Assembly: GCA_043814965.1 (NCBI GenBank)
Contig: JBDRJN010000003.1
Location: forward strand, 136,677 to 200,676
Source: Candidatus Omnitrophota bacterium
GTDB taxonomy: Bacteria > Omnitrophota > Gorgyraeia > Gorgyraeales > Gorgyraeaceae
DNA length: 64,000 nt
Reading direction: 5' to 3'
Under the pieces are notes generated by a model that saw only the letters and a list, made by a program, of their open reading frames with translations, was not told where the DNA came from and made no database searches. Both the position numbers and the translations under genes were made by a program. This document shows positions 17,488 through 44,201 of this stretch, one piece after another (the stretch's first letter is position 1; each line of letters opens with the position of its first letter).

Positions 17488-18449
17488 ACTCCCTTAAACA
17501 TTACATTTTTTATATTAACATAAGCCATATAGGTCATAAGTAAAATATCATAGCTCAATATAAAAGGAGAGTTTATTAAATAATTTTTAAAAGTATCGTT
17601 TTTCCTCATACATAAGTAGCGGTTCTTGATATATTCTTCTTTTAGTTCATCCGATAAGTAGGGGAGGCTTAAGCCTCCCCTACGATCTTTATCAGCTCCT
17701 CTAACCGCTGTCCCGCCACGTCTATGATACGCTACAGCCTTAGGAGTGTAATATGCTTTCCATCCTGCCCTGGCTGCTCTCCAGGATACATCAAGGTCTT
17801 CGTAGTACATCCTGAACCTTCTGTCAAAATATCCGTATTGGTCCTTTATATCCTCAAGCATACTTTTTCTATAAAATGCGCACGCCCCGCTCACGCCAAA
17901 TATATATTCTTCTTTATCATACTGCCCCGTACCCCGTAACCCGTAACCCGTAACCCTTTTCCCGTATCCCCTCTCGACAGGCTTTCTATTTCTTCCCAGC
18001 ATTAGTCCAGTTGAATCGATTGTGGACTTATCTTCCCGCAAGATCTTCCCTGACACCATACCGATGCTATCATCCTTACCTATTGCGCACGAAACTTCCT
18101 TTAAATAATCTTTATCCAGATATACATCATTATTGATGCAAAGTATGAATTTTCCCGAAGATCTTTTTATGCCTTCGTTATATGCTTTAGAAAAAAATAA
18201 GTTAGTTGTATTTTGAATAAGCTTTGCTTCAGGGAAATGCGTCCGCACCATCTCTACACTATTATCAGTGGAGGCATTATCTACTACAATTAATTCTATT
18301 TGTTTACCCGCATTGTTCTGTTTATCCGCATTACTCTGTTTATCCGTATTGTAGGGGAGGCTTAAGCCTCCCCTACAAGCTTTTACAGATTCCAGGCATC
18401 GCTTCAATAGATCCGCTTTATTATAATTTACAACTATTACTGATATCAT
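17442..18449 (-). CDS. Family 2 glycosyltransferase with three palindromic element copies and two tandem-repeat tracts in its reading frame
   Basis: GT2 N-terminus VIVVNYNKADLLKRCLESV...IELIVVDNASTDNS and C-terminal YHRRGGTA core. RGGLSLPY, the translated palindrome, occurs twice in the protein. Confidence 0.7.
   Translation of the reverse strand: MISVIVVNYNKADLLKRCLESVKACRGGLSLPYNTDKQSNADKQNNAGKQIELIVVDNASTDNSVEMVRTHFPEAKLIQNTTNLFFSKAYNEGIKRSSGKFILCINNDVYLDKDYLKEVSCAIGKDDSIGMVSGKILREDKSTIDSTGLMLGRNRKPVERGYGKRVTGYGLRGTGQYDKEEYIFGVSGACAFYRKSMLEDIKDQYGYFDRRFRMYYEDLDVSWRAARAGWKAYYTPKAVAYHRRGGTAVRGADKDRRGGLSLPYLSDELKEEYIKNRYLCMRKNDTFKNYLINSPFILSYDILLMTYMAYVNIKNVMFKGVVGEPSSSAKATEDR
17658..17683. 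repeat. Palindromic element copy 3 (GTAGGGGAGGCTTAAGCCTCCCCTAC), in frame inside the GT2 coding sequence
   Basis: Perfect 26-bp palindrome, translated as RRGGLSLPY. Confidence 0.75.
17925..17959. repeat. Heptanucleotide tandem repeat, about 5 copies of (C/A)CCCGTA, inside the GT2 coding sequence
   Basis: ccccgta ccccgta acccgta acccgta acccgta read directly. Encodes GYGKRVTGYGLRGTG. Confidence 0.8.
18299..18351. repeat. Three imperfect tandem copies of an 18-bp unit (TCTGTTTAYCCGYATTRY) inside the GT2 coding sequence
   Basis: Encodes the hexapeptide repeats NTDKQS, NADKQN and NAGKQ near the N-terminus of the GT2. Confidence 0.7.
18351..18376. repeat. Palindromic element copy 4 (GTAGGGGAGGCTTAAGCCTCCCCTAC), in frame in the GT2 N-terminal region
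   Basis: Identical to copy 3. Translated as ACRGGLSLPY. Confidence 0.75.
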
Positions 18450-18481
18450 CTGTTGTGCCTTAATTTTTATACCTCATATAA

Positions 18482-18531: not shown

Positions 18532-20307
18532 CTATGTTAAAACCTTATCCTCTGTCTGATCTCTAAATAAATCCTGGAATTCTTTATTATTGCCAAGGAG
18601 TTCTTCTACATTGCCGATCACCATCTCTCCTGAACTATTCAAAAAATACACTAGCTCTGACCGTTTTACAGTAGATAAGCGGTGGGAGACGCTGATAAGC
18701 GTGATATCCTTAGCATATCCCCTGATATTCTCTATTATCCTATCTTCACTCAGGGAATCCATGGAAGCAAATGCCTCATCAAGTATTAAGATCTTTGGCT
18801 TTTTTATAAGCGCGCGCGCAATAGCTATCTTCTGCTTTTGTCCTTCTGATATCTTACATGCATTTTCACCGATTATTGTTTCATACTTATCATGCAGCTT
18901 TTCAGTAAACTCATCTACCAGGGCTATCTTAGCGCACTTTATAACATCTTCAAAGCTAGCCAGGTTATTTCCATAAAGGATATTATTTTTTATGCTATCA
19001 TTAAAGAGGTTCGGCTCCTGCAGCGCCATTCCAATACTATTTTTAAGCGAATTTAGGGACACATCCCTAATATTTTGCCCATCTATTATTATCTCGCCTC
19101 CATCGACCTCGTACAGCCTGGCGATCAGATTCAGGATCGTGGTCTTACCCTGCCCTGAAGGCCCAGCCAAGCTAATGTGCGTTCCCCCTTTTATCTTAAG
19201 ATCGAGGCCTTTTAAAATAAGTTGATCTTTCGAGTATCCAAAATTTACTTTTTTAAATTCTATCTCGCCTTTAGTTACAATAATATATTTTGCGTCTTCC
19301 CTGTCTGCTATCTCCTCTTTTTCATTCAAGATATTCTCTACTCTCTCACATGATACAAGGCCCAGGACAGTGCTTTGAAAAAACGATATAAAGCCGTATT
19401 GCATGTTCACTAGCTGGCCTAGATACACCAGGATCGCTGTGAGAGTGCCAAAGCTTATCTCACCTCTTATCACATGATAGCCTCCATAAAATGTAATAAG
19501 CCCTATTATGACCTTATCCAATACTTTGGCTGAAAACCCGCTAAAGATATCTAGTTTTGTACTGCTTTTTTCTAGCTCAATATTGTTTTTTAAGATGTTT
19601 AGGTATTTTTCTTTTTCATCTTTTTCCTTGCCAAATACCTTTATTAAATACGAGTGAGAAAAACTCTCCTGCAGGAATTTAAATATGCTTTGAGAGCACT
19701 CTATTAGCTTCTCCCAGATCGATCTACGTTTTTTGATAAAATAATACGGCCCTATATAAAGGAATGGCGCTAAAAAAAGTGAAAATAACGCTATCTTCCA
19801 GTTTAGCTTTAATATAATAATAAATATAAAAGCAATCCTAGGGAAAAGCATCACTGCCTTTGGGGGGATGCTTGTAATAAGCGTATTTACCCTATCTATA
19901 TCGCTGCTTATCTTATAGATATTTTCACCTGTTGATCTATCTCTAAACCATGCGAGAGACAACTTATTGATCTTACTAAACACCGCATTATTTAGGCTGT
20001 ATTTGACATCCAGGCTTACTTTTTTCTCTAGATATTCCTTGAGACCTTCTATCGCGCCAAGCGCAATAAATACCAATATCCCTAGGCTAGCAAGCAGCAC
20101 AAACTGCCTCAGGTCTTTTTTTATTATCCCTTCATCAACTATTAGTTTTGTTATATATGGATTTACTACGCTTAATAAGCTCCAGAAACTACCTAATAAG
20201 ATTATTAAAACCCACTTTGCCTTGTGAGGCAGGATAAGCCTTACAAATCTAAAAAAAAGCTGGGTCTGACTTTTTGCCTGATCAAGTTTTGGCTGGAATT
20301 TTCTCAT
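18532..20307 (-). CDS. ABC exporter with fused permease and ATPase (MsbA/type I exporter-like)
   Basis: Six predicted TM helices followed by Walker A LAGPSGQGKTT, signature LSEGQKQKIAIARAL and Walker B ILILDEAFASMD. No N-terminal C39 peptidase domain. 4-bp overlap with the AbiEii gene. Confidence 0.8.
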   Translation of the reverse strand: MRKFQPKLDQAKSQTQLFFRFVRLILPHKAKWVLIILLGSFWSLLSVVNPYITKLIVDEGIIKKDLRQFVLLASLGILVFIALGAIEGLKEYLEKKVSLDVKYSLNNAVFSKINKLSLAWFRDRSTGENIYKISSDIDRVNTLITSIPPKAVMLFPRIAFIFIIILKLNWKIALFSLFLAPFLYIGPYYFIKKRRSIWEKLIECSQSIFKFLQESFSHSYLIKVFGKEKDEKEKYLNILKNNIELEKSSTKLDIFSGFSAKVLDKVIIGLITFYGGYHVIRGEISFGTLTAILVYLGQLVNMQYGFISFFQSTVLGLVSCERVENILNEKEEIADREDAKYIIVTKGEIEFKKVNFGYSKDQLILKGLDLKIKGGTHISLAGPSGQGKTTILNLIARLYEVDGGEIIIDGQNIRDVSLNSLKNSIGMALQEPNLFNDSIKNNILYGNNLASFEDVIKCAKIALVDEFTEKLHDKYETIIGENACKISEGQKQKIAIARALIKKPKILILDEAFASMDSLSEDRIIENIRGYAKDITLISVSHRLSTVKRSELVYFLNSSGEMVIGNVEELLGNNKEFQDLFRDQTEDKVLT

Positions 20308-21077
20308 TTCATGCTTTTTATATACTCACAAAAATACAGCACCTTCTTTGAATCGCTTGGTTTAAATAAAAAAGGTTCTACATCTTTTGACAAGTGTTTA
20401 AAATCCAACTTTTTACATTTTAATAAAAGTTTCTCTTTTAACTCATCTATATCCTTAATGCCTGGCTTCGCTCTTAAATAATCAAAATTAGGCCTTGCCT
20501 TGCCAAAAAGATAAATGGCATCATAAAAATCCCTCCCCATTGCGCGCTTACGTTTAAGGATAGCATATATCTTTTGCGCCAGCAATATGTCAGGCGGCAC
20601 TATATTTATCCGCAAAAATACGTCAAATTTATTTATAATAACTTTGTCAGGGGCATAATCAAAATTCTGGGGTTCAGCATCTAGCTGGATTAGTATCTTT
20701 TCCTCTTTATGCCAGGATAATCCACTTTCAAAAAGTACATTCGGGATCCTTAAATAAGCCCTGTAAGCGCCTTTAAAAACATTCCTGGCCTCTGATATAT
20801 ATCCCTGTAAGGCCAATTGCCTTTTTACTAACCCTGCCAATCGCTCAAATTCTCTTTTATTTAGCCCTAGATTATCAAAATCCAAATCTTCTGAAAACCT
20901 TGTGTTTGAATGTATAATGCGTATAGCTGTCCCTCCCATAAAAGAGAGTTTCCCCCCAAATCTTGAATTAAAAATAATCTCGAGTATTTTATACTGCAGG
21001 TATTCGCGTAGTAAATTTCTCTTAAAAACCTTAAGATATTCAGGATAAAAAGACTCTATCTCTCTTATATCAAGCAT
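20304..21077 (-). CDS. AbiEii/AbiGii-family nucleotidyltransferase toxin (type IV toxin-antitoxin)
   Basis: LSFMGGTAIRIIHSNTRFSEDLDFD matches the DUF1814/AbiEii core. 8-bp overlap with the upstream antitoxin. Confidence 0.65.
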   Translation of the reverse strand: MLDIREIESFYPEYLKVFKRNLLREYLQYKILEIIFNSRFGGKLSFMGGTAIRIIHSNTRFSEDLDFDNLGLNKREFERLAGLVKRQLALQGYISEARNVFKGAYRAYLRIPNVLFESGLSWHKEEKILIQLDAEPQNFDYAPDKVIINKFDVFLRINIVPPDILLAQKIYAILKRKRAMGRDFYDAIYLFGKARPNFDYLRAKPGIKDIDELKEKLLLKCKKLDFKHLSKDVEPFLFKPSDSKKVLYFCEYIKSMK

Positions 21078-21687
21078 GGCTCATAAACCTCAAGAAAGAC
21101 TCTGATCTTTTTCTTAATGCCTTCTGATTAAACCTCTCAAGAAACATATATAGCTTTTCTTTGCTAAGCTGCTTAAAAAACATATCCTTATTTATGCGTA
21201 AACTCGCAAAACCATCTTCATCTTTTATGTTCGGATTAATATATAAATAATCCAAAATAGCCTTTTCCATGCTGGCAATCTTAAAATATTTATCCCCATA
21301 TTTTACCAAAATATACCCAAAAAAAAGCCTGGGCGTTACAGTCCTATATATAAATTCTGCTATCCGGGTCTTGAATCTATATGTCCTGCGGGTAGAAACA
21401 GCGGTAATTCCGTAGACGCTTTCAGGGATCAACTGGTAATAAGAAAGCGCCATCTCAAAAGAAATATATGAAGGAGGATATATCTTGTTGGAGATCTCGA
21501 AAAGCGCCTTTTCATTAAGCTTTAAATCAGAAAAGACATAATACCCCCTCACTACCTTTATAATATACCCCTTATCCTGCCATTCATTCAGCCTTGTGCG
21601 GAAAAAATTACCTTTAAGGGATTTAATGTCATTAAAGGAAAATATCGTGAAGTCCTTTAGGGCATTTCTTAATTCAAGATAGTGCAT
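21070..21687 (-). CDS. AbiEi-family antitoxin / transcriptional regulator
   Basis: 205 aa immediately upstream of and overlapping AbiEii. N-terminal winged-helix-like region (RTRLNEWQDKGYIIKVVRGYYVF). Confidence 0.55.
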   Translation of the reverse strand: MHYLELRNALKDFTIFSFNDIKSLKGNFFRTRLNEWQDKGYIIKVVRGYYVFSDLKLNEKALFEISNKIYPPSYISFEMALSYYQLIPESVYGITAVSTRRTYRFKTRIAEFIYRTVTPRLFFGYILVKYGDKYFKIASMEKAILDYLYINPNIKDEDGFASLRINKDMFFKQLSKEKLYMFLERFNQKALRKRSESFLRFMSHA

Positions 21688-21770: not shown

Positions 21771-22901
21771 TTAAACTTTTAACTTTTTCGCATCCTCCAG
21801 CATCTTCGCCCTCGCATGCGCCACTTCGCAGAAATAATCTATCGGCTTATCGAGCTCTCCACACTCAAGATGCGCATGAGCAGGACACCATAAACATAGG
21901 TTCACAATATTACAAACCTTACATTTCTCAAGAAATTCTTTCCTGTTTGAAGTCATTGCTCTTACGTTAGGTACAAAGTTCTCCCAAGCATCCCTAAGAG
22001 TCCCTTTTCTTAGATCATACATACATTTAGGATTGTGCAGAGATGAACAAAGCTTGAACATGCCTTCATAGCTGATATCAAAGTTACTATTACCTGCGCC
22101 GCAATAAAATATATTATTTCCATCAGAATGTGAATCTTTAGATAAAATAAGACTTGAACAGTTTTTCTCCAAAAACTGAAACCTCTTGGAGTCCTGACTT
22201 TCTACTATAATTATCTCATCAGGAGAAAGTCTTTCTAAAGATATTTCTTGATTCCTTTTTTTGTCAGAATCAAATCTCATGTGCAGAAAAGGATCAAAAC
22301 GAAAATAATCAGTAGTCCTTTCTCTACAAAAACTAGCTATTTGAGGTAACTCATCAACATTAGAGTGTAGTGCCATTGCTTTAAAACGTACTTTTATCTT
22401 ATTTTTAAGCAATATATCAAGTCCTTTCATAAATGCCTCGAAAGAACCAGGCTTTCTAGTAACCTTTTCATAGGTTTTTTTCGTAACACCATATACTGTC
22501 ACTTCCAGGTTTCTCGGAGGATATTTTTTAAATAAATCTATATGTCTGTCAGTTATCAACGTAGCATTAGTAAACACTGACACAAATAATCCCATTTTTT
22601 TAAGTAATATATAAACCTCAAAAAAATCCTCTCTCAATAATGGCTCACCGCCTGTTATAAGACACCATACAGCCCCCATATTCACTGCTTGAGTTGCTAT
22701 ATGTTCTATCTCGCTAATAGTTAATTCTTTCTTTTTTGCATCAGCATCATTTTTAGGTAGGTTTATATAGCAGTGTCTGCAATTATTATTACATCTTGCG
22801 GTAAGTTCTAGATTAAAAGAAATGATATTCATTCCTTCTTTCATCTTATCCCACATCTTAAAATCAGGTAATTTCTTACGCTTTACGAAAGGACTATCCA
22901 T
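21771..22901 (-). CDS. Radical SAM/SPASM-domain peptide-modifying enzyme (paralog A)
   Basis: CNNNCRHC CX3CX2C motif and GGEPLL. C-terminal Cys-rich SPASM region (CKVCNIVNLCLWCP...CGEL...YFCEVAHA). 8-bp overlap with the peptidase gene. Confidence 0.8.
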   Translation of the reverse strand: MDSPFVKRKKLPDFKMWDKMKEGMNIISFNLELTARCNNNCRHCYINLPKNDADAKKKELTISEIEHIATQAVNMGAVWCLITGGEPLLREDFFEVYILLKKMGLFVSVFTNATLITDRHIDLFKKYPPRNLEVTVYGVTKKTYEKVTRKPGSFEAFMKGLDILLKNKIKVRFKAMALHSNVDELPQIASFCRERTTDYFRFDPFLHMRFDSDKKRNQEISLERLSPDEIIIVESQDSKRFQFLEKNCSSLILSKDSHSDGNNIFYCGAGNSNFDISYEGMFKLCSSLHNPKCMYDLRKGTLRDAWENFVPNVRAMTSNRKEFLEKCKVCNIVNLCLWCPAHAHLECGELDKPIDYFCEVAHARAKMLEDAKKLKV

Positions 22902-23427
22902 TTAACACTACCTTCTTGATCCGATCTCTTATAAAAAGTGGTATCAATATTCTCCATAGATATATAAAAAGATTAATAAGCCTGGTCTTTGTTAAAAAAA
23001 AGATCAGAAAACGCGTTCTCCTGTTGCCAAAAAAAATATTCTTATTATTTCTTTCTATTTTTTCTACAAATGCCAGCATATCTTCTTTTTTAATTATGCC
23101 ATCTATCCATAACATACTATCGCCTTTTAAGACATAACAGTCTCTTTTTCTTCCTATTATTCTATGAACAGTAAGCCGCCTTGTAACAGGATGTATAAAA
23201 GCAGCCATATCTCCAAGACAAAAATCACCTTTGTCGTTTAATCGACAAAGTGTTATTGTATCCCCATCCATAATAAAAGGTGACATACTAAACCCCTTTG
23301 CCTTAAACCTAAATCCAGCGTTTTTGTTTAACGTTACTTTGAGTAACTCTATAAAAGCTGAGCTGTCAAAAACGATGTCCTGTCCTTCTTTTATAAAATA
23401 ACTAGCTTTATTTCTTTCGATTTTCAA
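22894..23427 (-). CDS. S26-family signal peptidase-like protein, probably ER/SipW-type S26B (candidate leader peptidase)
   Basis: GFSMSPFIMDGD (Ser box) and TVHRIIGRKRD (His in place of the box-D Lys, as in S26B). 177 aa. Translationally coupled within the operon. Confidence 0.5.
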   Translation of the reverse strand: MKIERNKASYFIKEGQDIVFDSSAFIELLKVTLNKNAGFRFKAKGFSMSPFIMDGDTITLCRLNDKGDFCLGDMAAFIHPVTRRLTVHRIIGRKRDCYVLKGDSMLWIDGIIKKEDMLAFVEKIERNNKNIFFGNRRTRFLIFFLTKTRLINLFIYLWRILIPLFIRDRIKKVVLNG

Positions 23428-23758
23428 TCACCATCTTTCTTTTTAAAAGCTCATTCGTCAATCCTAGCACATCTTCCTTGATCTCGTCTTTCCCTCCCTC
23501 AAACTTTTCAGCTAGCCGTCCTATGACTTCTTCAAGTGTACTCTTGCCATCAAGCTCATTCCATATGGCCCTACCAGTCTCATTCAGAGTAAATATCTCG
23601 TCCTCCATATCCCCTACTCCGGAAGTTATAGGGATTATTATAAATTCCCCTTGTATTTCGCGAGCCACCACAGCTTCCGATATCTTATAAGTTTTTTTAA
23701 TATCAAGCGCTGTTTTCATAAATCGTCTCCTTTTTTTAAAAAACCTTTTTATTGACAA
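23408..23758 (-). CDS. PqqD-family peptide chaperone (stand-alone RiPP recognition element)
   Basis: 116 aa. VVAREIQGEFIIIPI...FTLNETGRAIWNELDGKSTLEEVIGRLAEKFEG follows the PqqD pattern. Confidence 0.7.
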   Translation of the reverse strand: MSIKRFFKKRRRFMKTALDIKKTYKISEAVVAREIQGEFIIIPITSGVGDMEDEIFTLNETGRAIWNELDGKSTLEEVIGRLAEKFEGGKDEIKEDVLGLTNELLKRKMVIENRKK

Positions 23759-24935
23759 ACCTATCTATTCTTTTTTTCCAATCTTTAACTTCCCATGCAT
23801 TTTCGCTTTTTCCTATAAGACCTAGAAATCTAGCCTGAACATGGGCAATTTTACACAAGTATTCTACAGGAGTATCTAGAGTTCCATGCTCTGACCAGGA
23901 CTTCCCAGGACATTGTTCACATAGGCCTTTTAAAAAACACCTGGCACACCGAGACAGATATTCTGGATCTTTAGCTTTTATCTTTCTTATTTTTGGAAAA
24001 AAATTAATGACAGCATCTCTTAGGGAGCCTTTTTTGAGATCATAAACTAAGTCGGGATGCCTCACCAGCATACAAGGCTGAAAATTGCCATAACTATCCA
24101 CGCAACCGCTATCTTTTCCTGATCCGCAAGAAAAGATATACTCACCTGAAGGATGCATGAACTTTGAACAAAATTCCTGCATACTTTTGATATGGTTTTT
24201 TTGCTTTCCTTTGGAAATATCCAAACTTTCTTTAGGTACAACTCTAAGTTTTTTTATGATATCATTCTTTTTAGTATCATCTCTGCGAGACCTCAGGTCA
24301 AAAGATGCTGAATATGATGGCTTTTTTTTGTCCATCCATGGAATAGTACTAGTCCATTTTTCAAATTCTTCCATGTCTTTTTTATTGGTAGGTAAAAGCG
24401 TTCCTTTAACAATAAAAGGAATATTGTGTTTCAATAATAGGTCTATTCCCCTCTTAAAATCCTTAAAAGACCCTTTGATCCGTGTACAAGCTTCATAAGA
24501 AGACTCTTTCATACCATAGACGCTTACTTCTATTTTTTTTAATGGCGGAATATCATTAAAGAGCTCTGCTAAATGAGGGGTGATCAAGGTAGCATTTGTA
24601 AATAAGATGACCTTTAGCCCTAACTTTCTTGCGTATACATAAAGCTCTTCAAAATCCTCTCTTAAAAGCGGCTCCCCTCCTGTAAATCTTACAACCATAC
24701 AACCAAGCTCAACTGCTTCTTTTAATATGGTCTTTATCTTATCTGTCGAGAGCTCTCTTTTTTTAGCATCTCTGTCATCGATGGGTAGATTTATATAGCA
24801 ATGTATACAATTGCTATTACACCTTTCCGTAATTTCAATGTCAAGATGAGGCAGGGGAGAAGTTTTTATTCTCCAATAAAAATCCTTACCTATTATCTTC
24901 TTAGTAGCATAAGAAATATTCTTTTTCATTATCAC
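23736..24935 (-). CDS. Radical SAM/SPASM-domain peptide-modifying enzyme (paralog B, PqqE-like)
   Basis: CNSNCIHCYINLP and GGEPLLREDF. Closely similar to paralog A over the first 120 aa or so. C-terminal SPASM cysteines (CARCFLKGLCEQCPG...YLCKIAHV). Confidence 0.8.
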   Translation of the reverse strand: MIMKKNISYATKKIIGKDFYWRIKTSPLPHLDIEITERCNSNCIHCYINLPIDDRDAKKRELSTDKIKTILKEAVELGCMVVRFTGGEPLLREDFEELYVYARKLGLKVILFTNATLITPHLAELFNDIPPLKKIEVSVYGMKESSYEACTRIKGSFKDFKRGIDLLLKHNIPFIVKGTLLPTNKKDMEEFEKWTSTIPWMDKKKPSYSASFDLRSRRDDTKKNDIIKKLRVVPKESLDISKGKQKNHIKSMQEFCSKFMHPSGEYIFSCGSGKDSGCVDSYGNFQPCMLVRHPDLVYDLKKGSLRDAVINFFPKIRKIKAKDPEYLSRCARCFLKGLCEQCPGKSWSEHGTLDTPVEYLCKIAHVQARFLGLIGKSENAWEVKDWKKRIDRFVNKKVF

Positions 24936-24950
24936 TGTATATCAGCTGAA

Positions 24951-26918
24951 CTATATATCTTGTAATATGTTCAATATATTTCCGCTTTTGTCAAAATAAA
25001 GATTATAAAATGTACCTTCATCGGCCATTTTTTCGATAAACTGGAGGGATTTTTCCCACCACTCTACCGTAACGAATGGCTTTATTAAACGCGGAAGAAG
25101 CTTTCTGGTTATTTCTCTTTTATCATTGATCAATTCTATCTTATTTTCCTTTGATTTATTCAGAAAAAATACCCCTTTTAGTAGAGCCGAAGCATTAGAG
25201 ACTTCAGGTATCTCACCATGGCTCCATGTACCATACATCTTAAACCCTTCAGGCTGCTTCCTAACGATAATTCTATCATCGCAGAGTATTTTTGAGCTGC
25301 CTTTTAGCATTTTTATCATTGTGGATTTACCAGCTCCTGACACACCAACAAAAAGCAACCCCTTCCCTTCGAGTTCAACGCCACTTGCGTGCAAGACACA
25401 GCCCTCTCTATCTGCCAATAATCTTGCTAAAAATATTTGATCTGTTGGGAGAAGGCTGAGGGTTTGTAAACCTCCTTTAGAAAAATGCTTTCCTATGTTA
25501 CTATACACACTAATGCTGGTATGCTCATTATTGAATACTACTATCTTATGGATCTTTTTTTCTATATTATCCGGCAATATCCCCATATATATCCAGGAAA
25601 GGCCTTTCTTATATATTGCCCAAGGGAGTCTTTTATAATATAGCTCCCCTAAATCCTTTTCCTTAAGATCAGGTAATTTAAAATGATGTCTTATCTTAAC
25701 GATATCTTTCCCTGGTTTATTTACTTCAAATTGCTTAAACTTAGCGCTAAATGTCTTATTATTTATAGGCATATCTGAGTCTACTCGTATTGTTACATCT
25801 GCGATATTAAAATAGCGCCTGTTATTTTTCTTCCAATCTTCTTTAAGCTTCCTATTTTCTTTTGCCATATCACACAGATAGTCGATCTTTTTGCTAAATT
25901 TACGGTGCTCAAGATAACTATACACAGGACAGATAAGGCAATTGCTTTTCAAATCACACTTGCCGCAATTCCTTAAATAATCTTTCGTAACCTTTATCTT
26001 ATCTGCCAAAGATGGGATAAGCTCTTCCCAGACTTTTTTAAAACTGCTTTTTTTTAAACTATACCTAAGGCCAGGTTCTTTGACAAACGAGCAAAAACTC
26101 ATCCCACCATAAGGATCTATATGAAATTCTCTTCTATTCTTTATGCACGAAGAAAAAAGGTGTGTCTCTGGTTTTGGACAAAGACCAGTATTTCTATTAT
26201 CCTCGGTAGATAAATCTATTGTATCAAGCCTTGCTGCCTCTTTCGGCGAAAGACGCTGGTAAATTATCTCTTTATTGACTTTTTCATCACCGCTTGCTGA
26301 TAAAAAAAGCCAGGCTGCTCCTATCCTATAGTGTTTACTCAAAGACCGGGCCAATAGTTTCATTTTCTCAAATTCATGGTAATTATCTCTCATAGGGACA
26401 AGCTGTATCATAAAACCAGCTCTTGCCTCTTTTAGATATCTAATGCCTTGCATGGTAGCCTCAAAAGAACCTGGATTTCTCGTAATATGATCATGCACTT
26501 TGGCTGTAGCGCCATAAAGCGCTATCATCTTTGCTCCGATCCTTTTAAAAAGTCCTGCGATCTTTTTTGTAATAAGTGACCCATTAGTATTAATACTATA
26601 TGATCTTGAATTAGAGGTTATATAATCGAATATCTCTAAAAAATCAGGCCTTAGTATTGGTTCACCGCCTGATATAGACCATTTGTGACAACCCATAGTC
26701 TTTGCATCATCTACTATTTTTTTTATATCTTCCAAGGAAAGTTCATGTCTTTTGTCTTTAGAATCAGGCGATATCCTAAGCCAGCAATGTCTGCAATTAT
26801 TATTACAACGGTATGTCAAGTCAATAATCCCTTCAAAAGGAAGTCTCGGCATATTAAATGACCTTTTCATTAAAACATATCTATCCTGATGTCTATTAGA
26901 TTTTATAAGATTACTCAT
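24951..26918 (-). CDS. Fusion protein: N-terminal radical SAM/SPASM enzyme plus a C-terminal HPr-kinase-like P-loop domain
   Basis: CNNNCRHCW and GGEPIL. SPASM region CGKCDLKSNCLICP...YLCDMAKE. The C-terminal roughly 280 aa carry VLHASGVELEGKGLLFVGVSGAGKST...ILCDDRIIV, matching the HprK C-domain Walker A and LxxDD pattern. Confidence 0.75.
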   Translation of the reverse strand: MSNLIKSNRHQDRYVLMKRSFNMPRLPFEGIIDLTYRCNNNCRHCWLRISPDSKDKRHELSLEDIKKIVDDAKTMGCHKWSISGGEPILRPDFLEIFDYITSNSRSYSINTNGSLITKKIAGLFKRIGAKMIALYGATAKVHDHITRNPGSFEATMQGIRYLKEARAGFMIQLVPMRDNYHEFEKMKLLARSLSKHYRIGAAWLFLSASGDEKVNKEIIYQRLSPKEAARLDTIDLSTEDNRNTGLCPKPETHLFSSCIKNRREFHIDPYGGMSFCSFVKEPGLRYSLKKSSFKKVWEELIPSLADKIKVTKDYLRNCGKCDLKSNCLICPVYSYLEHRKFSKKIDYLCDMAKENRKLKEDWKKNNRRYFNIADVTIRVDSDMPINNKTFSAKFKQFEVNKPGKDIVKIRHHFKLPDLKEKDLGELYYKRLPWAIYKKGLSWIYMGILPDNIEKKIHKIVVFNNEHTSISVYSNIGKHFSKGGLQTLSLLPTDQIFLARLLADREGCVLHASGVELEGKGLLFVGVSGAGKSTMIKMLKGSSKILCDDRIIVRKQPEGFKMYGTWSHGEIPEVSNASALLKGVFFLNKSKENKIELINDKREITRKLLPRLIKPFVTVEWWEKSLQFIEKMADEGTFYNLYFDKSGNILNILQDI

Positions 26919-27050: not shown

Positions 27051-27254
27051 TCAAGACTGATCAAGATTATAACAAACTGCGCATTCTCGCGGCCATGAAA
27101 TCGCAGTAAAAGACTGACAGCCGCCAAATACTGAGCCTGCATAGATATAATATGTCTCATCCTTCTTACAGATCGTCAAGACATTTTCACCCTTGGCTTT
27201 TACCATTACGACCAGATTTGGTTTTTTCCACTTGTTTCTTGGTTTCTTCACCAT
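27051..27254 (-). CDS. Candidate RiPP precursor peptide (67 aa) with a PqqA-like leader (KWKKP...), a Cys-containing core and a C-terminal Ser
   Basis: First gene of the operon. RBS AGAGGGA sits 6 nt before the ATG. Leader MVKKPRNKWKKPNLVVMVKAKGENVLTICKKDET is shared with a paralog at 33999-34223. Core ends ...RECAVCYNLDQS. Confidence 0.55.
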   Translation of the reverse strand: MVKKPRNKWKKPNLVVMVKAKGENVLTICKKDETYYIYAGSVFGGCQSFTAISWPRECAVCYNLDQS

Positions 27255-27410: not shown

Positions 27411-28403
27411 ATGGAAAAGAATAAAAAAAGCATACTTTTACTCTGCAAAATAGATTTGACTGGATCTGAAAAAAAAGAGATATCTATATCATTTAACACA
27501 GAAGGCTTCTGGGCTGATTTGGACAAATTCGCCGAGATTAACCGCGTGTACCCTCTAATATATTCTCAACTTAAAAAAATAGACTCTGACCTTATTATCC
27601 CTGAAAAAATGACAAAAATTTATCTTTATAGCTTAAAAATAAATACTTTATTAAAAAAAGAATTTTTATCCGTGCGAGATAAGCTATTGGAAAACAAAAT
27701 ACCTGTGATCCCTCTGAAAGGAATAGACCTAGAAGATAGGATATATAAAAACATTGGCGCAAGAAATATGGTAGATATCGATATATTAGTCAAAAAGGAG
27801 GATTCGGAAAAAGCAAAAACAGTGCTCAAAAGTCTGTCTTACAGCGCTTATCCAAAAATATCACCAGAATCTCAAATAATACTATCGAAAAAGATGTCTC
27901 CCAGTGTTATCTCTAACATAGACCTTCACTGGGAGATTTTTCCTCCCAGGCCATACAAGATCAGCTTGCCTGGCATATGGACCTCTGACAAACTAAGGCT
28001 TGAAGATGCGGTCATTGTTACGACACTTCATATTAGACGCCATATTAGACAAGCTACTTTTAAAGATTTTTGCGATGTCCTCAATATCTTAGAACAAAAA
28101 GAATCTAATATTGACTATTCGTACCTTAAAAAAATTGCTAAAAAAAATCATATCAAAAACTGCCTTAGCTTCTCTATCTTCGCTATCAATAACATATTCG
28201 GGACTGACTTACCTCAACTTTTTAAGATAAGCTCTTTTAGAAAAAAAATATTACTTTACCTTTTCCCTCAAGACATATTTTTCAAAGAAACAAAAAATAA
28301 AGTCAAGCTATCCATTTTAAGGATTTTTCTATTCGATTCGATCATAGACATCATTGTTTACATTGTCAGGGTCAGTTTATTCGAAAGAAGATTCAAGATA
28401 TGA
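27411..28403 (+). CDS. Nucleotidyltransferase-family protein (uncharacterised NTase family resembling those beside HPr-kinase-like genes in lasso-peptide clusters)
   Basis: N-terminus ILLLCKIDLTGSEKKEI...FWADLDKFAEINRVYPLIYSQL and LKGIDLEDRIY...DIDILV match that family pattern as recalled. Divergent from the precursor gene. Confidence 0.5.
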   Translation: MEKNKKSILLLCKIDLTGSEKKEISISFNTEGFWADLDKFAEINRVYPLIYSQLKKIDSDLIIPEKMTKIYLYSLKINTLLKKEFLSVRDKLLENKIPVIPLKGIDLEDRIYKNIGARNMVDIDILVKKEDSEKAKTVLKSLSYSAYPKISPESQIILSKKMSPSVISNIDLHWEIFPPRPYKISLPGIWTSDKLRLEDAVIVTTLHIRRHIRQATFKDFCDVLNILEQKESNIDYSYLKKIAKKNHIKNCLSFSIFAINNIFGTDLPQLFKISSFRKKILLYLFPQDIFFKETKNKVKLSILRIFLFDSIIDIIVYIVRVSLFERRFKI

Positions 28404-29515
28404 TAATCTCCCATATTGGTTCAAGAGGTATCCCTGCTGTGTATAGTGGGGTCGAAAACGCCATAGAAGAACTTTCAAAACGCCTAGTAGAGCAAGGTAT
28501 TGATATAACTGTATACTGCCATTCAAAAAAAATAAAAACATCCTATTACAGCTTTACAAAACTGATAGAACTTCCTACTATACATACAAAACACCTTGCA
28601 ACCATTGTCCATTCCCTTATATCGACTATTCATGTAATATTTACAGATACTGACATAGTACATTACCATGGGATCGGCTCGTCAATCTTTTCATTTATCC
28701 CTCGCATATTTGGCAAAAAAACTATTGTGACCGTACACGCCCTGGACTGGAAAAGAAAAAAATGGAATAAACTCGTACAATTTTTATTAAAACTGTGTGA
28801 GATAAGCGCCTTATATTTCCCAAACAAAACAATAGTAGTGTCAAAGCATCTAAAAAATTATTTTAAAAATAAGTATAATAAAGAAACTTATTTCATTCCC
28901 AATGGTGTAAATATACAAAAAGGTCTCCAGGATACCCCATCAGAAGACTATATACTCTTTGTTGGACGACTAGTACCAGAGAAGGGTATACAATATTTAA
29001 TAAGGGCATTTAACGATATAAATACCGATAAAGAACTTTGGATAGCAGGCCAAGCTAGTTATACTGATTGGTATTTCAGGGAATTAAAAAAAATCTCTCA
29101 AAAAAATATAAGGTTTTTAGGGCCTATTTATGGGGAAAAACTGTCTGCTTTATACAATAATGCCTATATATTCGTATTGCCTTCTGAAATAGAGGGCTGC
29201 CCTATAGCGCTTTTGGAAGCAATGTCACACAAAAAATGCTGCCTAATAAGTAATATACCTGAATGTGTAGAAATAGGCTCTGATTGCACCATGACTTTTG
29301 AAAATAAAGATCATGCTGATCTAAAGAAAAAACTAGAATTGCTTCTAAATGACCCTCAGTTGGTATATGACTTAGGTAAAAAGGCTTGGGGGAAAATAAA
29401 GATAGATTACGACTGGGGTAATATAGTCCTAACATTAAAAAACATCTATCTTTCGCTAGATGAAATCTCTCTATCAAAAGATATTATTAGACCGATGACT
29501 AACCAAAATAAATAA
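28400..29515 (+). CDS. GT4 (group 1) glycosyltransferase
   Basis: 371 aa with a GT-B fold pattern and the E-x7-E region (SEIEGCPIALLEAMSHKKCC). 4-bp overlap with the NTase gene. Confidence 0.7.
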   Translation: MIISHIGSRGIPAVYSGVENAIEELSKRLVEQGIDITVYCHSKKIKTSYYSFTKLIELPTIHTKHLATIVHSLISTIHVIFTDTDIVHYHGIGSSIFSFIPRIFGKKTIVTVHALDWKRKKWNKLVQFLLKLCEISALYFPNKTIVVSKHLKNYFKNKYNKETYFIPNGVNIQKGLQDTPSEDYILFVGRLVPEKGIQYLIRAFNDINTDKELWIAGQASYTDWYFRELKKISQKNIRFLGPIYGEKLSALYNNAYIFVLPSEIEGCPIALLEAMSHKKCCLISNIPECVEIGSDCTMTFENKDHADLKKKLELLLNDPQLVYDLGKKAWGKIKIDYDWGNIVLTLKNIYLSLDEISLSKDIIRPMTNQNK

Positions 29516-30699
29516 AAAGAAGTTTTCCATAAGAATGCATCAAATGTATTCACGTTGAATAACATAGCTGTAAAACCTATCAAAACAACTGAAAACATCT
29601 CTTTTCTATATCCTTCTGATTTCTTGTAGCACAAAAAAGACCTTTTTATAATGCTCTCCAGAAATATTATAAAACCTACAGAACCTATCACCCCTGTCTC
29701 CGCCAAATGCATAAGATAGACACTATCAGGTATCATAAGTTCATGTGGAAGTCTTAGGCTTGAGTATTCGTTAAAAACCAACCTGAAGTTATTAAGCCCT
29801 ATGCCTACGAAAGGGTGGTGTCTTAACATGTTCCATGTAACAAGATACGCGCCAGTCCTATGCCCTGTGCTCAAATAGCTCCATAACCTTTGTATGCTGA
29901 ACCTATGTGTAAACTCTGAGATAACATATAACCTGAGTGAACAAAAAATAATAAACAAAATCCCTAAACACAGAACAAAAATTACAGTTTTAAATCTCTT
30001 CTTTAAGATCAGTAAAATCAAAAATGTCAGAAATCCTGCCAGATAGGTGCCTCTTGAAAAAGTAAAGACCATTGCGGAAAATATAACTAAAAATACTGTG
30101 AAATTAAAATTCTTTAGCGTTTTTCTCTTCTCACTTTTATAAAAATAATACGCTAACGGCAAGCAAGTTATAAGGTAAGACCCCAATATGTTAGGGTGTG
30201 CCAATGTCGACATCATGCGTTTTTCTTCTATTAAATACCTATGATAAAAATAGTTACTTATATATCTTTCGTATATTATATTGCGTTCGAACAGCATCTC
30301 TAAGAAACCAAAAAATGCTACTAGTCCAGCACATATACATAAAACATATAAGACGCTCTTTACATTTTTAGAATTAATTTCGTTTCTAGCCAAATAATAT
30401 ATCGGGATTGCGCTAAGGACAAAATCTCTATAATAAACATAGGAAGATAGTTTATTTTGAGAAAAGTATATGTTTATAGAAAAAAGAAAAAGATATACCC
30501 AGAAAAATTTACCATTATCAAGAAAATATTCTTTAAAATCATGCCTTTTTTTAAAGAAACTGACTAAAAACAAAATCCATAATATTATATTAAATACATT
30601 ATTATACTGAAATTTTATTGGGTCTGGGACAAAAGATATCCAAATGATAAATAGGATCATAAAAAAAAGAACTATTCTTTCACTAGATATTTTCGACAT
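29446..30699 (-). CDS. O-antigen ligase / Wzy_C-domain polytopic membrane protein (paralog 1)
   Basis: 417 aa, 10 or more TM helices, and a periplasmic loop with H-x-x-L-x-x-L-x-E-x-G-x-x-G (HLAETGVIGSVGF). Confidence 0.6.
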   Translation of the reverse strand: MSKISSERIVLFFMILFIIWISFVPDPIKFQYNNVFNIILWILFLVSFFKKRHDFKEYFLDNGKFFWVYLFLFSINIYFSQNKLSSYVYYRDFVLSAIPIYYLARNEINSKNVKSVLYVLCICAGLVAFFGFLEMLFERNIIYERYISNYFYHRYLIEEKRMMSTLAHPNILGSYLITCLPLAYYFYKSEKRKTLKNFNFTVFLVIFSAMVFTFSRGTYLAGFLTFLILLILKKRFKTVIFVLCLGILFIIFCSLRLYVISEFTHRFSIQRLWSYLSTGHRTGAYLVTWNMLRHHPFVGIGLNNFRLVFNEYSSLRLPHELMIPDSVYLMHLAETGVIGSVGFIIFLESIIKRSFLCYKKSEGYRKEMFSVVLIGFTAMLFNVNTFDAFLWKTSFYLFWLVIGLIISFDREISSSER

Positions 30700-31927
30700 T
30701 CTCTTCTCTTCCAGTCAATGACATTATAATGCCGCAATAAAACCAGAACATAAAATATGGAGTCCTCCAGTACAGTGAATCATACGTCATCATAGTTACT
30801 AATATCGCTACCATCCCTCCCAATGCAATAGAAATAACCTCTTTATACTTAGAAGACATTCTTATCATCGGTAAAGCCCTTGAAATAATCAGAAACAAAA
30901 AACCAATAAAAGACAATAATCCTAAAACACCACTTTCACAAAGCATCATAAGAAACATATTTTCCGGAGTTTTCCTGTATTCATTATGCTCCTTGGGCTC
31001 TTTATCATATTTATTGAATACAATCTTATAATTACCCAATCCAACACCCCAAATAATGTTATGTCTAGCAATAGTCCCAGCAATCTCAAATCTAGTAATT
31101 CTATACTTATGATACTCCTTATTAAAAAATCCGTATCTACCTATGCTGATCCTTTGCTTATTGATATCTTTACTTGATGAAAACACTAATAGTAAGCTAA
31201 ATATAAATAAGAGAAAAATCAGGGCTATCTTTTTATTTTTAAATACTAGATATATAAAAGTTGCGGCGGTAAAAGCGCAGATCGCAACTCGCTCTAGAGA
31301 TAAAAAAGCTCCTACGAGAATAAATAACCAACAAAAAATACCTATTAGAATCAATGATTTTTTATTTGCATTGAAAGCTAGAAAACAAGCAAAAGGTGAA
31401 CTCGCAGCTAAGTAAGTCCCAAAAACTTGAGGAACGTATTGGGTAGACATTACCCTACCTTGAGAAAGATAATAGATATAATACTGATTTTTAATAAAAA
31501 TCTCGTATATTAAATTTCTATGGAATATATGCTCCAGTATCCCAATAAAACCAACTATAGCTCCTAATATGCATATAGTTAAAGCTACCTCGTTTTTATT
31601 TTTAAATAAATAAATGTTACTTTTAAAGAAAAAATAGACTACTAATGCTGGGATCGCATAATCGTAGTATTTATTTATGGCTATATCTCTATTCTGCGCA
31701 AAGTTCAATCCTATTGTTAATATAAATATATAACTCCATAAAAATAGATCATTTTTATCAATAAACAGTCTCTTAATATTAATCTTATCTAAAAAAATAA
31801 TGCTTATAAAACCAAAAAAAAGAATTATAACTATATATTTAGGTTGTATCAGGCTAGAAAAAAATGATATCCATATAAAAAATAGTATAAAAATAACAAG
31901 AAATATAGTTTCGGATATCTTTTTCAT
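30683..31927 (-). CDS. O-antigen ligase / Wzy_C-domain polytopic membrane protein (paralog 2)
   Basis: 414 aa. ARHNIIWGVGLGNY...MLCESGVLGLLSF. Confidence 0.6.
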   Translation of the reverse strand: MKKISETIFLVIFILFFIWISFFSSLIQPKYIVIILFFGFISIIFLDKINIKRLFIDKNDLFLWSYIFILTIGLNFAQNRDIAINKYYDYAIPALVVYFFFKSNIYLFKNKNEVALTICILGAIVGFIGILEHIFHRNLIYEIFIKNQYYIYYLSQGRVMSTQYVPQVFGTYLAASSPFACFLAFNANKKSLILIGIFCWLFILVGAFLSLERVAICAFTAATFIYLVFKNKKIALIFLLFIFSLLLVFSSSKDINKQRISIGRYGFFNKEYHKYRITRFEIAGTIARHNIIWGVGLGNYKIVFNKYDKEPKEHNEYRKTPENMFLMMLCESGVLGLLSFIGFLFLIISRALPMIRMSSKYKEVISIALGGMVAILVTMMTYDSLYWRTPYFMFWFYCGIIMSLTGREENVENI

Positions 31928-32115: not shown

Positions 32116-32658
32116 CTATGCTTTCTCCAGTATCTTGTTGTAAAGCTCTTCTGTACCATATGTAAGGCATATGTCTTTGAACTCGGTATCTTTGACATCG
32201 ATTTTATTGACATTGATCAATTGAATGATATCCGGCATGTCCCTATATTCTCGAATAGACGGGTTATACTTTATCGCGTGTAGTTTCAGTGCGATCAGAT
32301 GACTTAGGCTTGGTACGATAAACTTTTGTTTTGCGATAGAGATCTTTTTCCCATCTTTAATGATCTTATCCAACGTATCCTTATCTACAAACATAAAATC
32401 TGTATCCATTAGATAGGGCTCATCTCCTAAAAGCCTCGTGAATACTTCATGCTCATAGTCTTTCTTAAATCCTTTTTTTATCAATATATCCGATATTTTC
32501 TCAAAATCCTCTTTAGTGATCAAAAAATCTATATCTGCTGTCTGCCGGCTTACCTTATAGTAATTCACCGCAAAACCACCTATCAAAACACAATTCACTT
32601 TGCTCTTAGAAAATATATCCGAAAAAAGATGGAAAATACTAGGGTATTGTCTGGCCAT
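32116..32658 (-). CDS. Small nucleotidyltransferase-fold protein (Pol-beta superfamily, putative)
   Basis: LIGGFAVNYYKVSRQTADIDFLI resembles the G-[GS]/D-x-D minimal NTase motif. 180 aa. Confidence 0.35.
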   Translation of the reverse strand: MARQYPSIFHLFSDIFSKSKVNCVLIGGFAVNYYKVSRQTADIDFLITKEDFEKISDILIKKGFKKDYEHEVFTRLLGDEPYLMDTDFMFVDKDTLDKIIKDGKKISIAKQKFIVPSLSHLIALKLHAIKYNPSIREYRDMPDIIQLINVNKIDVKDTEFKDICLTYGTEELYNKILEKA

Positions 32659-32781: not shown

Positions 32782-34068
32782 ATGCAAAAATTAAACTCAA
32801 AACCCATATCGCCTATTATACTTTCAATACTTGCTTTCTTTATCTTTATCCGGCCCTTCTTCTCTGGTCTTGTCTATCCCCTTCTAGAGTTATACTATGA
32901 AGTCGCTTTAATTATGCTAGGATTCATAACTCTTTTTATCTATAGGAAATATGAATTCAAGAGTCCTTTTGTGATGCCTATAGCTATTATGCTTTTGTCT
33001 TATCTTATATCGCATATATTTTCAGTAAATTTTGAAAATTCTACAAAAGAGATCATTAGGTTTATTAGCTATATAATGATATTTTCTATGGTGGGGTTGT
33101 CAAATCGGTCTCAAAAAGACACCCTTATAAAGATCATGGTATTTTCAGCCTCTATTGTAAGCATCTATGCAATATACCAATACTTTTGGGGATATGACAT
33201 CCTTCTAAATGGCTTAAACTCTACTCAGAATTTTCTAGTCTCCAATTCTTCATACGCCAAAGATATCCTTATAGGGAAACGAGCTATAAGCACCTTTCCC
33301 TCTCCTAACATATTAGGAGGATATCTAATAATGATGTTCTTTCTGGCTTTATATCTATCAAAAAGATATAAAATAGCTTTAATAGCCGTGATCCTTATAT
33401 CCTTTGCGCTTCTTTTAACAAAATCAATGGGCGCATGGCTCAGCCTTATAGTTGCATTAATTATTTATGTGGTAGTTGGCTATAAAACATTAAGATTTGA
33501 AAAAAGAATCGCTATTATCTCTTCCATCTTCATAGTATTAGCCCTAATATTTATCCTACTAAGTCGTGGGGAAAGATTAATAAACCTTGAAAACCCGCAA
33601 AATTCCATCACCCAACGCATAGCATACTGGAAAACTGCTATCAATATCATAAAGTATCATCCAATATTCGGGGTCGGTCCTGGAAATTTTCAGGAAGTCT
33701 TTTTAAAATATAAAATCGGATCAGATACAGATACTAGATACGCTCATAATCTATTTTTGCAGATTTGGGTCGAGCTTGGGATTCTAGGCTTAATAGGTCT
33801 AATATATCTATTATCTATGATTGTAAAAAATTTAAGGACAAAACTTCAAAATAACCTAATACTATTTGTCAGCATTGTCTTCATGATGCATAATATAATA
33901 GATATAACTTATTTTATCCCTCAGGTATCTTTTTTTTGGTGGGTAATCTTAGGTATACTATTAAGAGTGACTACGGAATCACTGAATAGATCTTTGCCTT
34001 ATGATGGGCCAAGTTCTGAACAAAAGTTACAGACTTCATCTGGCGCAGGGCCTCCGACACGGATATAA
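32782..34068 (+). CDS. O-antigen ligase family protein (paralog 3)
   Basis: 428 aa. YAHNLFLQIWVELGILGLIGL is the Wzy_C signature. Its C-terminal tail overlaps the precursor paralog antisense by about 70 bp. Confidence 0.6.
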   Translation: MQKLNSKPISPIILSILAFFIFIRPFFSGLVYPLLELYYEVALIMLGFITLFIYRKYEFKSPFVMPIAIMLLSYLISHIFSVNFENSTKEIIRFISYIMIFSMVGLSNRSQKDTLIKIMVFSASIVSIYAIYQYFWGYDILLNGLNSTQNFLVSNSSYAKDILIGKRAISTFPSPNILGGYLIMMFFLALYLSKRYKIALIAVILISFALLLTKSMGAWLSLIVALIIYVVVGYKTLRFEKRIAIISSIFIVLALIFILLSRGERLINLENPQNSITQRIAYWKTAINIIKYHPIFGVGPGNFQEVFLKYKIGSDTDTRYAHNLFLQIWVELGILGLIGLIYLLSMIVKNLRTKLQNNLILFVSIVFMMHNIIDITYFIPQVSFFWWVILGILLRVTTESLNRSLPYDGPSSEQKLQTSSGAGPPTRI

Positions 34069-34223
34069 CATGAAAAATGTAAAAAATTAGGTCCATATTT
34101 AGCATACTCTCTCGGCACCGTATCGTCATCGGTACTGCAAAAAGCAAGCACTGCTTCTTGCTTATCACCTCTTATTAAAACAATAAGCTCCGGCCTATCC
34201 CATTTAAGTTTCTTTTTTGCCAC
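33999..34223 (-). CDS. Second candidate RiPP precursor peptide (74 aa), paralog of 27051-27254; GTG start
   Basis: Strong RBS GGGGAGG 6 nt before the GTG. Leader MAKKKLKWDRPELIVLIRGDKQEAVLAFCSTDDDT aligns with the first precursor. Divergent Cys-containing core ending ...EVCNFCSELGPS, also with a C-terminal Ser. Confidence 0.5.
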   Translation of the reverse strand: MAKKKLKWDRPELIVLIRGDKQEAVLAFCSTDDDTVPREYAKYGPNFLHFSCYIRVGGPAPDEVCNFCSELGPS

Positions 34224-44197: not shown

Positions 44198-44201
44198 AGT
44201 C

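Follow-up and report, generated by a model that had tools for sequence, protein, structure and literature searches.

What would a single polypeptide do that carries a radical S-adenosylmethionine (rSAM) peptide maturase at one end and a kinase-like domain at the other? The question is raised by a gene in a 64,000-nucleotide stretch of DNA from a Candidatus Omnitrophota bacterium (hereafter the window, whose coordinates are used throughout for its genes). The open reading frame (ORF) at 24951–26918 on the minus strand runs from ATG to stop without interruption and encodes 655 amino acids (aa). Its product joins a radical SAM core and a SPASM-like auxiliary-cluster region (residues 1–365; 25824–26918, minus strand) to a ScmC domain (residues 366–655; 24954–25823, minus strand) that combines a beta subdomain, at its N-terminus, with a P-loop domain that has the fold of HPr kinase/phosphorylase (HprK/P) and phosphoenolpyruvate carboxykinase (PEPCK). 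We show that such rSAM-ScmC fusions are common in uncultured anaerobes and that they belong to a conserved gene cassette for peptides that are made ribosomally and modified after translation (RiPPs). By analogy with characterized RiPP enzymes, we regard it as an evenly balanced proposition that the fusion is a bifunctional RiPP maturase, which would form one Cys-dependent crosslink and phosphorylate a C-terminal Ser.

The fusion protein is 100% identical to NCBI entry MFH1478500.1 ('MAG: radical SAM protein [Candidatus Omnitrophota bacterium]'; MAG, metagenome-assembled genome), which is encoded on a 213-kb contig. Its entry in the collection that we searched (P0121) has precomputed matches to PF04055 (Radical_SAM) and PF27840 (ScmC). 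The NCBI protein starts 22 codons downstream of the ORF start and is 633 aa long. We favor the longer ORF because a nearly invariant tyrosine (Y14) in an alignment of 117 full-length homologs sits upstream of the NCBI start.

Homologs with the same architecture are abundant. A search with the full protein retrieved 1599 proteins at E <= 1e-50, and the best 120 of these are all ~650 aa long, are 55–63% identical and contain both PF04055 and PF27840. Scanning one genome per species identified 346 relatives. Among the 78 best loci, a full-length fused ORF is present in 65 and a partial one in 6 (5 of them at contig ends), and ScmC is a standalone gene in ~9. The hosts span more than 10 phyla and include bacteria (Omnitrophota, Aminicenantes/Acidobacteriota, Planctomycetota, Desulfobacterota, Chloroflexota, Actinomycetota, Bacillota, Victivallales, NC10 and Margulisbacteria/WOR-1) and methanogenic archaea (Methanothrix and Methanoregula). 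A census of 1.84 billion cluster representatives returned 446 at E <= 1e-30, and among the best 150 of them the ~650-aa fusions are mixed with ~300-aa standalone forms. Gene context confirmed that genuine standalone ScmC genes exist, and some of the 'long' matches to a query with the C-terminal half are fusions truncated at the N-terminus. The standalone forms are scattered among the fused forms in a neighbor-joining tree, which carries no support values, and the number of fusion events is therefore left without conclusion.

This distribution bears directly on whether two neighboring genes could have been merged by a frameshift in sequencing or assembly or by a lost stop codon. All that we found in favor of such an artefact are the split or partial forms at two loci (L064, 8902–10870, and L066, 1615–2972), where the rSAM and ScmC regions lie in separate adjoining ORFs that could be recent fissions, frameshifts or sequencing errors. 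The 65 full-length and 6 partial fused ORFs, from independent assemblies and many phyla, together with the uniform architecture of the 120 best homologs, exclude it, and we assign it a negligible probability. The junction itself provides additional evidence. Its sequence (W-x-K-N-H-R-R-Y-F/Y) is conserved among homologs and, in the full-length AlphaFold2 (AF2) model (mean predicted local distance difference test score, pLDDT, 85.6; predicted template modeling score, pTM, 0.78), the last SPASM helix (residues 346–366) runs straight into the first ScmC strand (residues 367–372) with pLDDT ~90 and no disordered linker. In this model the fusion looks like a rigid two-domain body. The single polypeptide proposed in the first-pass annotation of the window is thus real and recurs in independent genomes. 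Nor is the fusion out of the ordinary: it is the majority architecture in its subfamily, and both domains are already annotated in public databases.

The N-terminal half has the features of an rSAM/SPASM-type maturase. It matches PF04055 with 76.6 bits (E 3e-21; cutoff 29.5) and belongs to the radical SAM superfamily. The motif CNNNCRHC (CX3CX2C; 26784–26807, minus strand) supplies C38, C42 and C45 as ligands of the radical SAM [4Fe-4S] cluster and is invariant in homologs. The motif is followed by seven conserved cysteines (C258, C276, C318-x2-C321-x5-C327-x2-C330 and C349; 25872–26147, minus strand) that are invariant or more than 90% conserved, as are the remaining rSAM, Walker A and CDDR motif residues of the protein. 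We took as the hallmark of a SPASM domain a C-terminal 7-Cys region for two auxiliary [4Fe-4S] clusters, CX9-15GX4C...CX2CX5CX3C...C. The fusion departs from the usual form (PF13186/TIGR04085) in the spacing of the central cysteines, CX2CX5CX2C rather than CX2CX5CX3C, and the Pfam SPASM model PF13186 gave no match to it at E <= 0.1. Structural searches with Foldseek matched this half to SuiB, SkfB, PqqE, anSME and BlsE. It has the CX3CX2C motif and C-terminal multi-Cys region of known rSAM/SPASM maturases (the sactipeptide and ranthipeptide synthases SkfB, AlbA, PapB and CteB; SuiB; PqqE), which also work with a PqqD or RiPP recognition element (RRE) partner on Cys-rich precursors. In contrast to these enzymes, the fusion has no N-terminal RRE domain, its PqqD partner is a separate protein, and it bears a kinase-fold domain at the C-terminus.

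The identity of the C-terminal half is less straightforward. The first-pass annotation had read it as an HprK-like P-loop domain from two motifs, GVSGAGKST and LCDDRII, and both are present and conserved: the Walker A P-loop spans G525–T533 (25320–25346, minus strand; G525, G530 and K531 invariant), and the CDDR segment (25272–25283, minus strand) carries the invariant pair Asp547-Asp548, which aligns to the 'ADD' of HprK. The fold and active-site residues of HprK are indeed shared, but the scores fall below every HprK cutoff and the domain has a family of its own, the ~290-aa ScmC family PF27840, which is precomputed on the identical protein and on all 120 best homologs. Its four top NCBIfam matches are all from the HprK superfamily: ScmC TIGR04249 (1e-10), HprK-related kinase B (2e-10), HPr(Ser) kinase (2e-6) and HprK-related kinase A (6.5e-4). 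Yet TIGR04249 scores 41.4 bits against an equivalog cutoff of 125 and covers residues 136–237 of the domain only, and the HprK-related kinases B (TIGR04355) and A (TIGR04352) score 40.4 and 18.9 bits against a cutoff of 200. The HPr kinase models TIGR00679 (27.3 bits; cutoff 240) and PF07475 (Hpr_kinase_C; 19.4–20.5 bits; cutoff 33.3) match just the stretch from the P-loop through the Asp-Asp pair. In Pfam and PDB sequence searches, P-loop models of ABC proteins and RsgA score near HprK, over ~25 residues of the Walker A region only. A profile search of PDB sequences with a 96-sequence alignment did not strengthen the link to HprK (E 0.028), so that homology past the P-loop region cannot be established from sequence alone.

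The AF2 model of the ScmC domain, built with 96 homologs, has a pLDDT of 93.2 and a pTM of 0.89. Foldseek matched it in the PDB to ATP-dependent PEPCKs or HprK/P enzymes in 49 of the top 50 cases, the remaining match being a Euglena complex I subunit. ABC and AAA proteins were absent from these 50 matches, which rules out a generic ABC/AAA P-loop domain unrelated to HprK. Furthermore, a phmmer alignment to the HprK/P of L. casei pairs LHAS with MHG, GVSGAGKST with GDSGVGKSE, and LCDDR with IADDR. H510, K531, D547 and D548 are invariant in the full-length homologs and align to the His, the P-loop Lys and the Asp-Asp pair of HprK/P, positions that we take to be His140, Lys161, Asp178 and Asp179 of its active site. 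The domain thus has the predicted fold of the HprK catalytic domain and, in addition, its P-loop, Asp-Asp pair and active-site His. As judged from the alignments and the model, its likeness to HprK lies only at the level of fold and active site. Identity to the C-terminal domain of HprK/P and to ATP-dependent PEPCK is 15–21% over the aligned core, the signature loop and oligomerization helices of HprK/P are not evident, and there are no phosphotransferase system genes in the genomic context of the cassette. HPr itself cannot be the substrate.

A candidate substrate is encoded next to the fusion gene. Directly upstream is a 67-aa precursor peptide (27051–27254, minus strand) with the leader KWKKPNLVVMV...ENVLTICK and a core with four cysteines that ends in CAVCYNLDQS. 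Small ORFs adjoining related cassettes share this leader, W-x-[KR]-P-x-L-[IV]-[VI]-L-x-R-G-x-P-E-E-x-V-L-x-x-C-K, and a strict version of the pattern retrieved 119 precursor-like peptides. These come from 70 loci, which have as many as 11 each, and two of them are in the window. The second in the window is a 74-aa ORF (33999–34223, minus strand; listed with a GTG start) that has the same leader and a four-Cys core ending in CNFCSELGPS. Some 7 kb separate it from the cassette. Immediately upstream, and likewise on the minus strand (34281–35576 and 35583–37160), lie genes for a family 1 glycosyltransferase (GT1) and for another rSAM/SPASM protein, the fourth, which is 525 aa long and extended by ~190 aa at its N-terminus.

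The precursors follow common rules. The C-terminal residue is Ser in 107 of the 119 peptides and Thr in another 6 (95% Ser/Thr), the ending that a C-terminal kinase model predicts for its substrates; other ORFs in the same DNA end in Ser in 10% and in Thr in 4.5% of cases. In 86 of 119 the last Cys comes exactly six residues ahead of the C-terminus, and another Cys occurs at -10 or -11 in 72 of 90. Positions -6 to -2 are variable. The number of cysteines follows the type of locus: of the 102 precursors that come from fusion loci, 97 have four or more (exactly 4 in 80), whereas all 9 from standalone-ScmC loci have 3 or fewer. Loci with the extra rSAM domain of the fusion thus also tend to have precursors with an additional Cys close to the C-terminus. 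Some cassettes are accompanied by arrays of precursor paralogs, with 11 in a Dehalococcoidia MAG (L025, 10977–18612), 6 in L061 and 5 each in L023 and L045. Leaders within an array are near-identical and cores hypervariable, with the Cys positions and the C-terminal Ser retained, which suggests a diversified peptide library.

The genes that follow the fusion gene encode the other members of the cassette. On the minus strand of the window, overlapping or abutting, the precursor and fusion genes are followed by those for a second rSAM/SPASM-type maturase (399 aa; 23736–24935), a PqqD-family protein (116 aa; 23408–23758; PF05402, E 1.5e-15), an S24/S26-like peptidase (177 aa; 22894–23427) and a third rSAM/SPASM maturase (376 aa; 21771–22901). 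The same order recurs in related loci. Among the 49 loci of at least 13 kb, where BLAST-based counts give lower bounds, the second maturase is present in 49, the PqqD protein in 47, the peptidase in 40 and the third maturase in 47. The PqqD protein is presumably the leader-recognition (RRE) chaperone, and the peptidase, which matches PF00717 with 24.7 bits (cutoff 23.3) and has an 'SMSP' motif, a hydrophobic C-terminus and weak matches to signal peptidase I, is presumed to remove the leader. Often added are an ABC exporter with fused permease and ATPase (591 aa; 18532–20307, minus strand; 24 of 49 loci), which probably exports the product, and a 330-aa protein with the nucleotidyltransferase fold of NTP_transf_5 (PF14907, E 3.4e-34; 27411–28403, plus strand), whose gene is transcribed divergently. 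The latter is found in at least 22 of 49 loci, and also in L001, L002 and L004, as a frequent yet non-universal partner of the cassette.

Comparison with the standalone loci clarifies the origin of the fused rSAM domain. These loci have the genes for ScmC, an rSAM, PqqD, the peptidase and another rSAM, hence two rSAM proteins rather than three. Because the standalone loci keep both downstream rSAM genes and lack a third, we rejected the idea that the fusion is ScmC welded to its usual rSAM neighbor and consider the fused rSAM an additional paralog. It is also the most divergent of the three, with 30–31% identity to the two cassette rSAMs, which are 39% identical to each other. A metagenomic locus (L002, 8001–12684) carries two standalone ScmC genes, one after a 550-aa glycosyltransferase and the other preceding two rSAM/SPASM genes and paired with a variant precursor (leader YETPKLVSL, five cysteines and a terminal Thr). 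This arrangement suggests that there are further cassette subtypes.

The closest mechanistic precedent for a kinase-fold protein in a RiPP cluster is the family of lasso peptide kinases (PadeK of paeninodin, ThcoK, and PsmK of pseudomycoidin). These HprK homologs act on lasso precursors, whose C-terminal Ser they phosphorylate while demanding little else of the sequence. In the pseudomycoidin pathway, PsmN, a protein with a nucleotidyltransferase fold, adds a hexose to that phosphate. The D158A/D159A mutant of PsmK is inactive, and it is to this pair that Asp547-Asp548 of the ScmC domain corresponds. The two systems thus share a P-loop kinase fold of the HprK superfamily in a RiPP cluster, substrates that end in Ser, an Asp-Asp pair and, frequently, a partner with a nucleotidyltransferase fold. 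They differ in that the lasso kinases are separate proteins from clusters with a cyclase and a B1/B2 protease, whereas the domain described here is fused to an rSAM, has an extra N-terminal beta subdomain and scores below the cutoffs of HprK-related kinases A and B. Neither a lasso cyclase (Asn-synthetase-like) nor a transglutaminase-like B/B2 peptidase was found among the cassette genes of the window or in the annotated related loci. This rules out a lasso system, the setting against which the first-pass annotation had viewed the fusion, and leaves a cassette of several rSAMs and a PqqD protein.

By analogy with these characterized RiPP enzymes of the HprK superfamily, the ScmC domain probably acts as a kinase on the C-terminal Ser. 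In the pathway that we propose, the PqqD protein would bind the conserved leader of the precursor, and each rSAM/SPASM domain would form a single crosslink that depends on Cys and is most likely a thioether like those of sacti- or ranthipeptides. The fused rSAM would handle the extra Cys at -10/-11, which is found only where a fused rSAM domain exists, and the ScmC domain would transfer phosphate from ATP to the hydroxyl group of the C-terminal Ser/Thr, a residue that is nearly invariant. The rigid fusion would hold the kinase and rSAM sites on one body, both acting on the C-x2/3-C-x5-Ser tail. The peptidase would then cut off the leader and the ABC transporter export the product. In loci that have it, NTP_transf_5 may modify the phosphate further, much like PsmN in the pseudomycoidin pathway. 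This picture of a C-terminal kinase fits with the invariant Ser at the terminus, the variability of the residues before it and the frequent presence of NTP_transf_5. Two chemistries on one scaffold, as the first-pass annotation had imagined, are therefore plausible and in line with the rigid junction of the AF2 model, with the kinase activity itself inferred.

Several observations weigh against a bifunctional crosslinking and phosphorylating enzyme. The sequence similarity of the ScmC domain to HprK is limited to ~60 residues around the P-loop and lies under every curated cutoff. After the Asp-Asp strand, a conserved F-K-I-Y-G-T-W-S-H-G-D/E replaces the E-I-R-G-L-G-I-I-N loop, which we take to be the HprK signature, so that both substrate and chemistry could differ. 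The spacing from the -7 Cys to the terminal Ser also occurs in standalone-ScmC loci and therefore does not explain the fusion, and NTP_transf_5 was detected in only 22 of 49 loci, a lower bound. The conserved Ser could instead serve recognition, elimination or attachment. Of the other roles that this leaves for the ScmC domain, the one that we consider least improbable, albeit still unlikely, is that of a nucleotide-dependent module for substrate handling or regulation, such as an ATP-gated clamp that presents the precursor tail to the rSAM sites or an ATP turnover that orders the three crosslinks. The rigid fusion with its high pTM would suit such a module, as would a beta subdomain that has no counterpart in the HprK catalytic domain and could bind peptide; standalone ScmC genes always adjoin rSAM genes, and the HprK signature loop is not conserved. 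Pure binding would not require an invariant Asp-Asp pair and His besides the Walker A motif, however, and the PqqD protein already supplies leader recognition.

Slightly less likely again is a kinase whose phosphate does not persist. ScmC would phosphorylate the C-terminal Ser, or another Ser/Thr, for elimination to dehydroalanine, which could capture a Cys in a lanthionine-like bond or, if C-terminal, hydrolyze to leave a C-terminal amide. Class III/IV lanthipeptide synthetases phosphorylate and then eliminate, and the fold, motif and C-terminal Ser that point to a kinase accommodate this route equally, as do the Cys-rich cores. Opposing it, we detected no lyase or elimination domain in the cassette, known HprK-like RiPP kinases retain the phosphate, and the Cys count follows the rSAM count, which favors the rSAM enzymes over Michael addition as the source of the crosslinks. 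The structural alignments raise yet another alternative. They extend over 184–205 residues for PEPCKs, which are small-molecule enzymes, versus 112–124 for HprK, and show that the beta subdomain at the N-terminus is likewise closer to PEPCK than to HprK; this, too, counts against a peptide kinase. ScmC could catalyze a PEPCK-like or other small-molecule or sugar-phosphate reaction and might thereby produce or use up a phosphorylated metabolite or a glycan precursor, with later attachment to the peptide. The many glycosyltransferase (GT), Wzy-like and Wzm/Wzt genes beside the window cassette and the frequent NTP_transf_5 partner agree with this idea. But the glycan neighbors are not conserved (GT in 10 of 49 loci, Wzy-like in 6 of 49), the substrate-binding N-terminal domain of PEPCK is far larger than the beta subdomain, and ScmC strictly co-occurs with precursor, rSAM and PqqD genes. 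We consider it the least probable of the three.

A label for the system already exists in family catalogs. TIGR04249, the best NCBIfam match of the C-terminal domain, belongs to the SynChlorMet cassette (ScmC/ScmD/ScmE/ScmF; TIGR04249, TIGR04248, TIGR04250 and TIGR04251), and ScmD, ScmE and ScmF are among the matches of the neighboring genes. Both cassettes have an ScmC-type domain, a PqqD protein and paired rSAM/SPASM enzymes. However, the scores are far under the equivalog cutoffs (ScmC 41 versus 125; ScmE/ScmF 67–89 versus 400), and the system described here differs in the third rSAM paralog to which ScmC is fused and in an S24/S26-like peptidase that belongs to the cassette. SynChlorMet is thus the closest catalog entry and provides a name, not a mechanism. 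Literature searches on ScmC and SynChlorMet, on PF27840 and on radical SAM in combination with HprK or Omnitrophota brought up nothing relevant, and we found no publication on the SynChlorMet cassette.

As an architecture the fusion is not new, since public databases already contain it with annotation of each domain. What appear to be unreported are the precursor family, the rule of a C-terminal Ser and the correspondence of the numbers of cysteines and rSAM domains. Together they make the 'ScmC' label experimentally concrete and directly testable, which should interest RiPP and radical SAM specialists. To our knowledge, HprK-type peptide kinases have so far been tied only to lasso peptides and have always been separate proteins. 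Here the fold is joined to an rSAM enzyme in a multi-rSAM pathway that is present in hundreds of species-level genomes, whose hosts are almost all uncultured and whose natural products are essentially unknown. The system extends the known RiPP logic of tailoring by the HprK superfamily rather than being categorically new. We advance more tentatively, at less than even confidence, the full picture of a widespread RiPP class, produced by methanogens and by anaerobic bacteria that are uncultured, of ~30–35-residue peptides with two to three rSAM-installed Cys crosslinks and a phosphate on the C-terminal Ser, perhaps further glycosylated via NTP_transf_5, in which the fusion is truly bifunctional and its two active sites perhaps cooperate on the peptide tail. 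If true, radical SAM and kinase would for the first time be combined in one maturase, and the product would be the first of a sacti- or ranthipeptide-like kind to carry a phosphate. Confirmation would add to the known RiPP classes and to the known types of bifunctional maturase, and would make the C-terminal phospho-Ser a possible handle for peptide engineering.

The surroundings of the window cassette have features of their own. A large glycan-biosynthesis region (28400–51083) contains several GT1, GT2 and GT4 genes, three Wzy_C (O-antigen-ligase-like) membrane proteins (29446–30699, 30683–31927 and 32782–34068), a Wzm/Wzt ABC exporter (42524–45029), a carbamoyltransferase (45386–47197) and a flavin amine oxidase (47565–48917). 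We considered whether these genes are part of the system, including a Wzy_C protein that would glycosylate the C-terminal Ser in the way that PilO/PglL-type enzymes act on pilin. Glycan genes are rarely near the cassette elsewhere, as the counts above show, and we therefore treat them as local context. Also among them is a gene for a '23S rRNA-intervening sequence protein' (PF05635; 47242–47592, minus strand); another PF05635 gene is near the ScmC cassette of the unrelated metagenomic locus L004 (5231–5611), which may be a coincidence.

On the other side of the cassette, a gene for an AbiEii-type nucleotidyltransferase toxin (20304–21077, minus strand) and, upstream, a 205-aa partner that has no Pfam hit and is possibly AbiEi-like (21070–21687, minus strand) form an insertion that separates the ABC exporter from the last rSAM gene and breaks the conserved gene order. 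A 180-aa ORF resembling AbiEii/NTP_transf_5 is found at 32116–32658 (minus strand). Finally, a GT2 glycosyltransferase (17442–18449, minus strand) contains the octapeptide RGGLSLPY twice (residues 27–34 and 257–264), flanking low-complexity inserts, and an ORF on the opposite strand (18224–18463) likewise reads RGGLSLPY.

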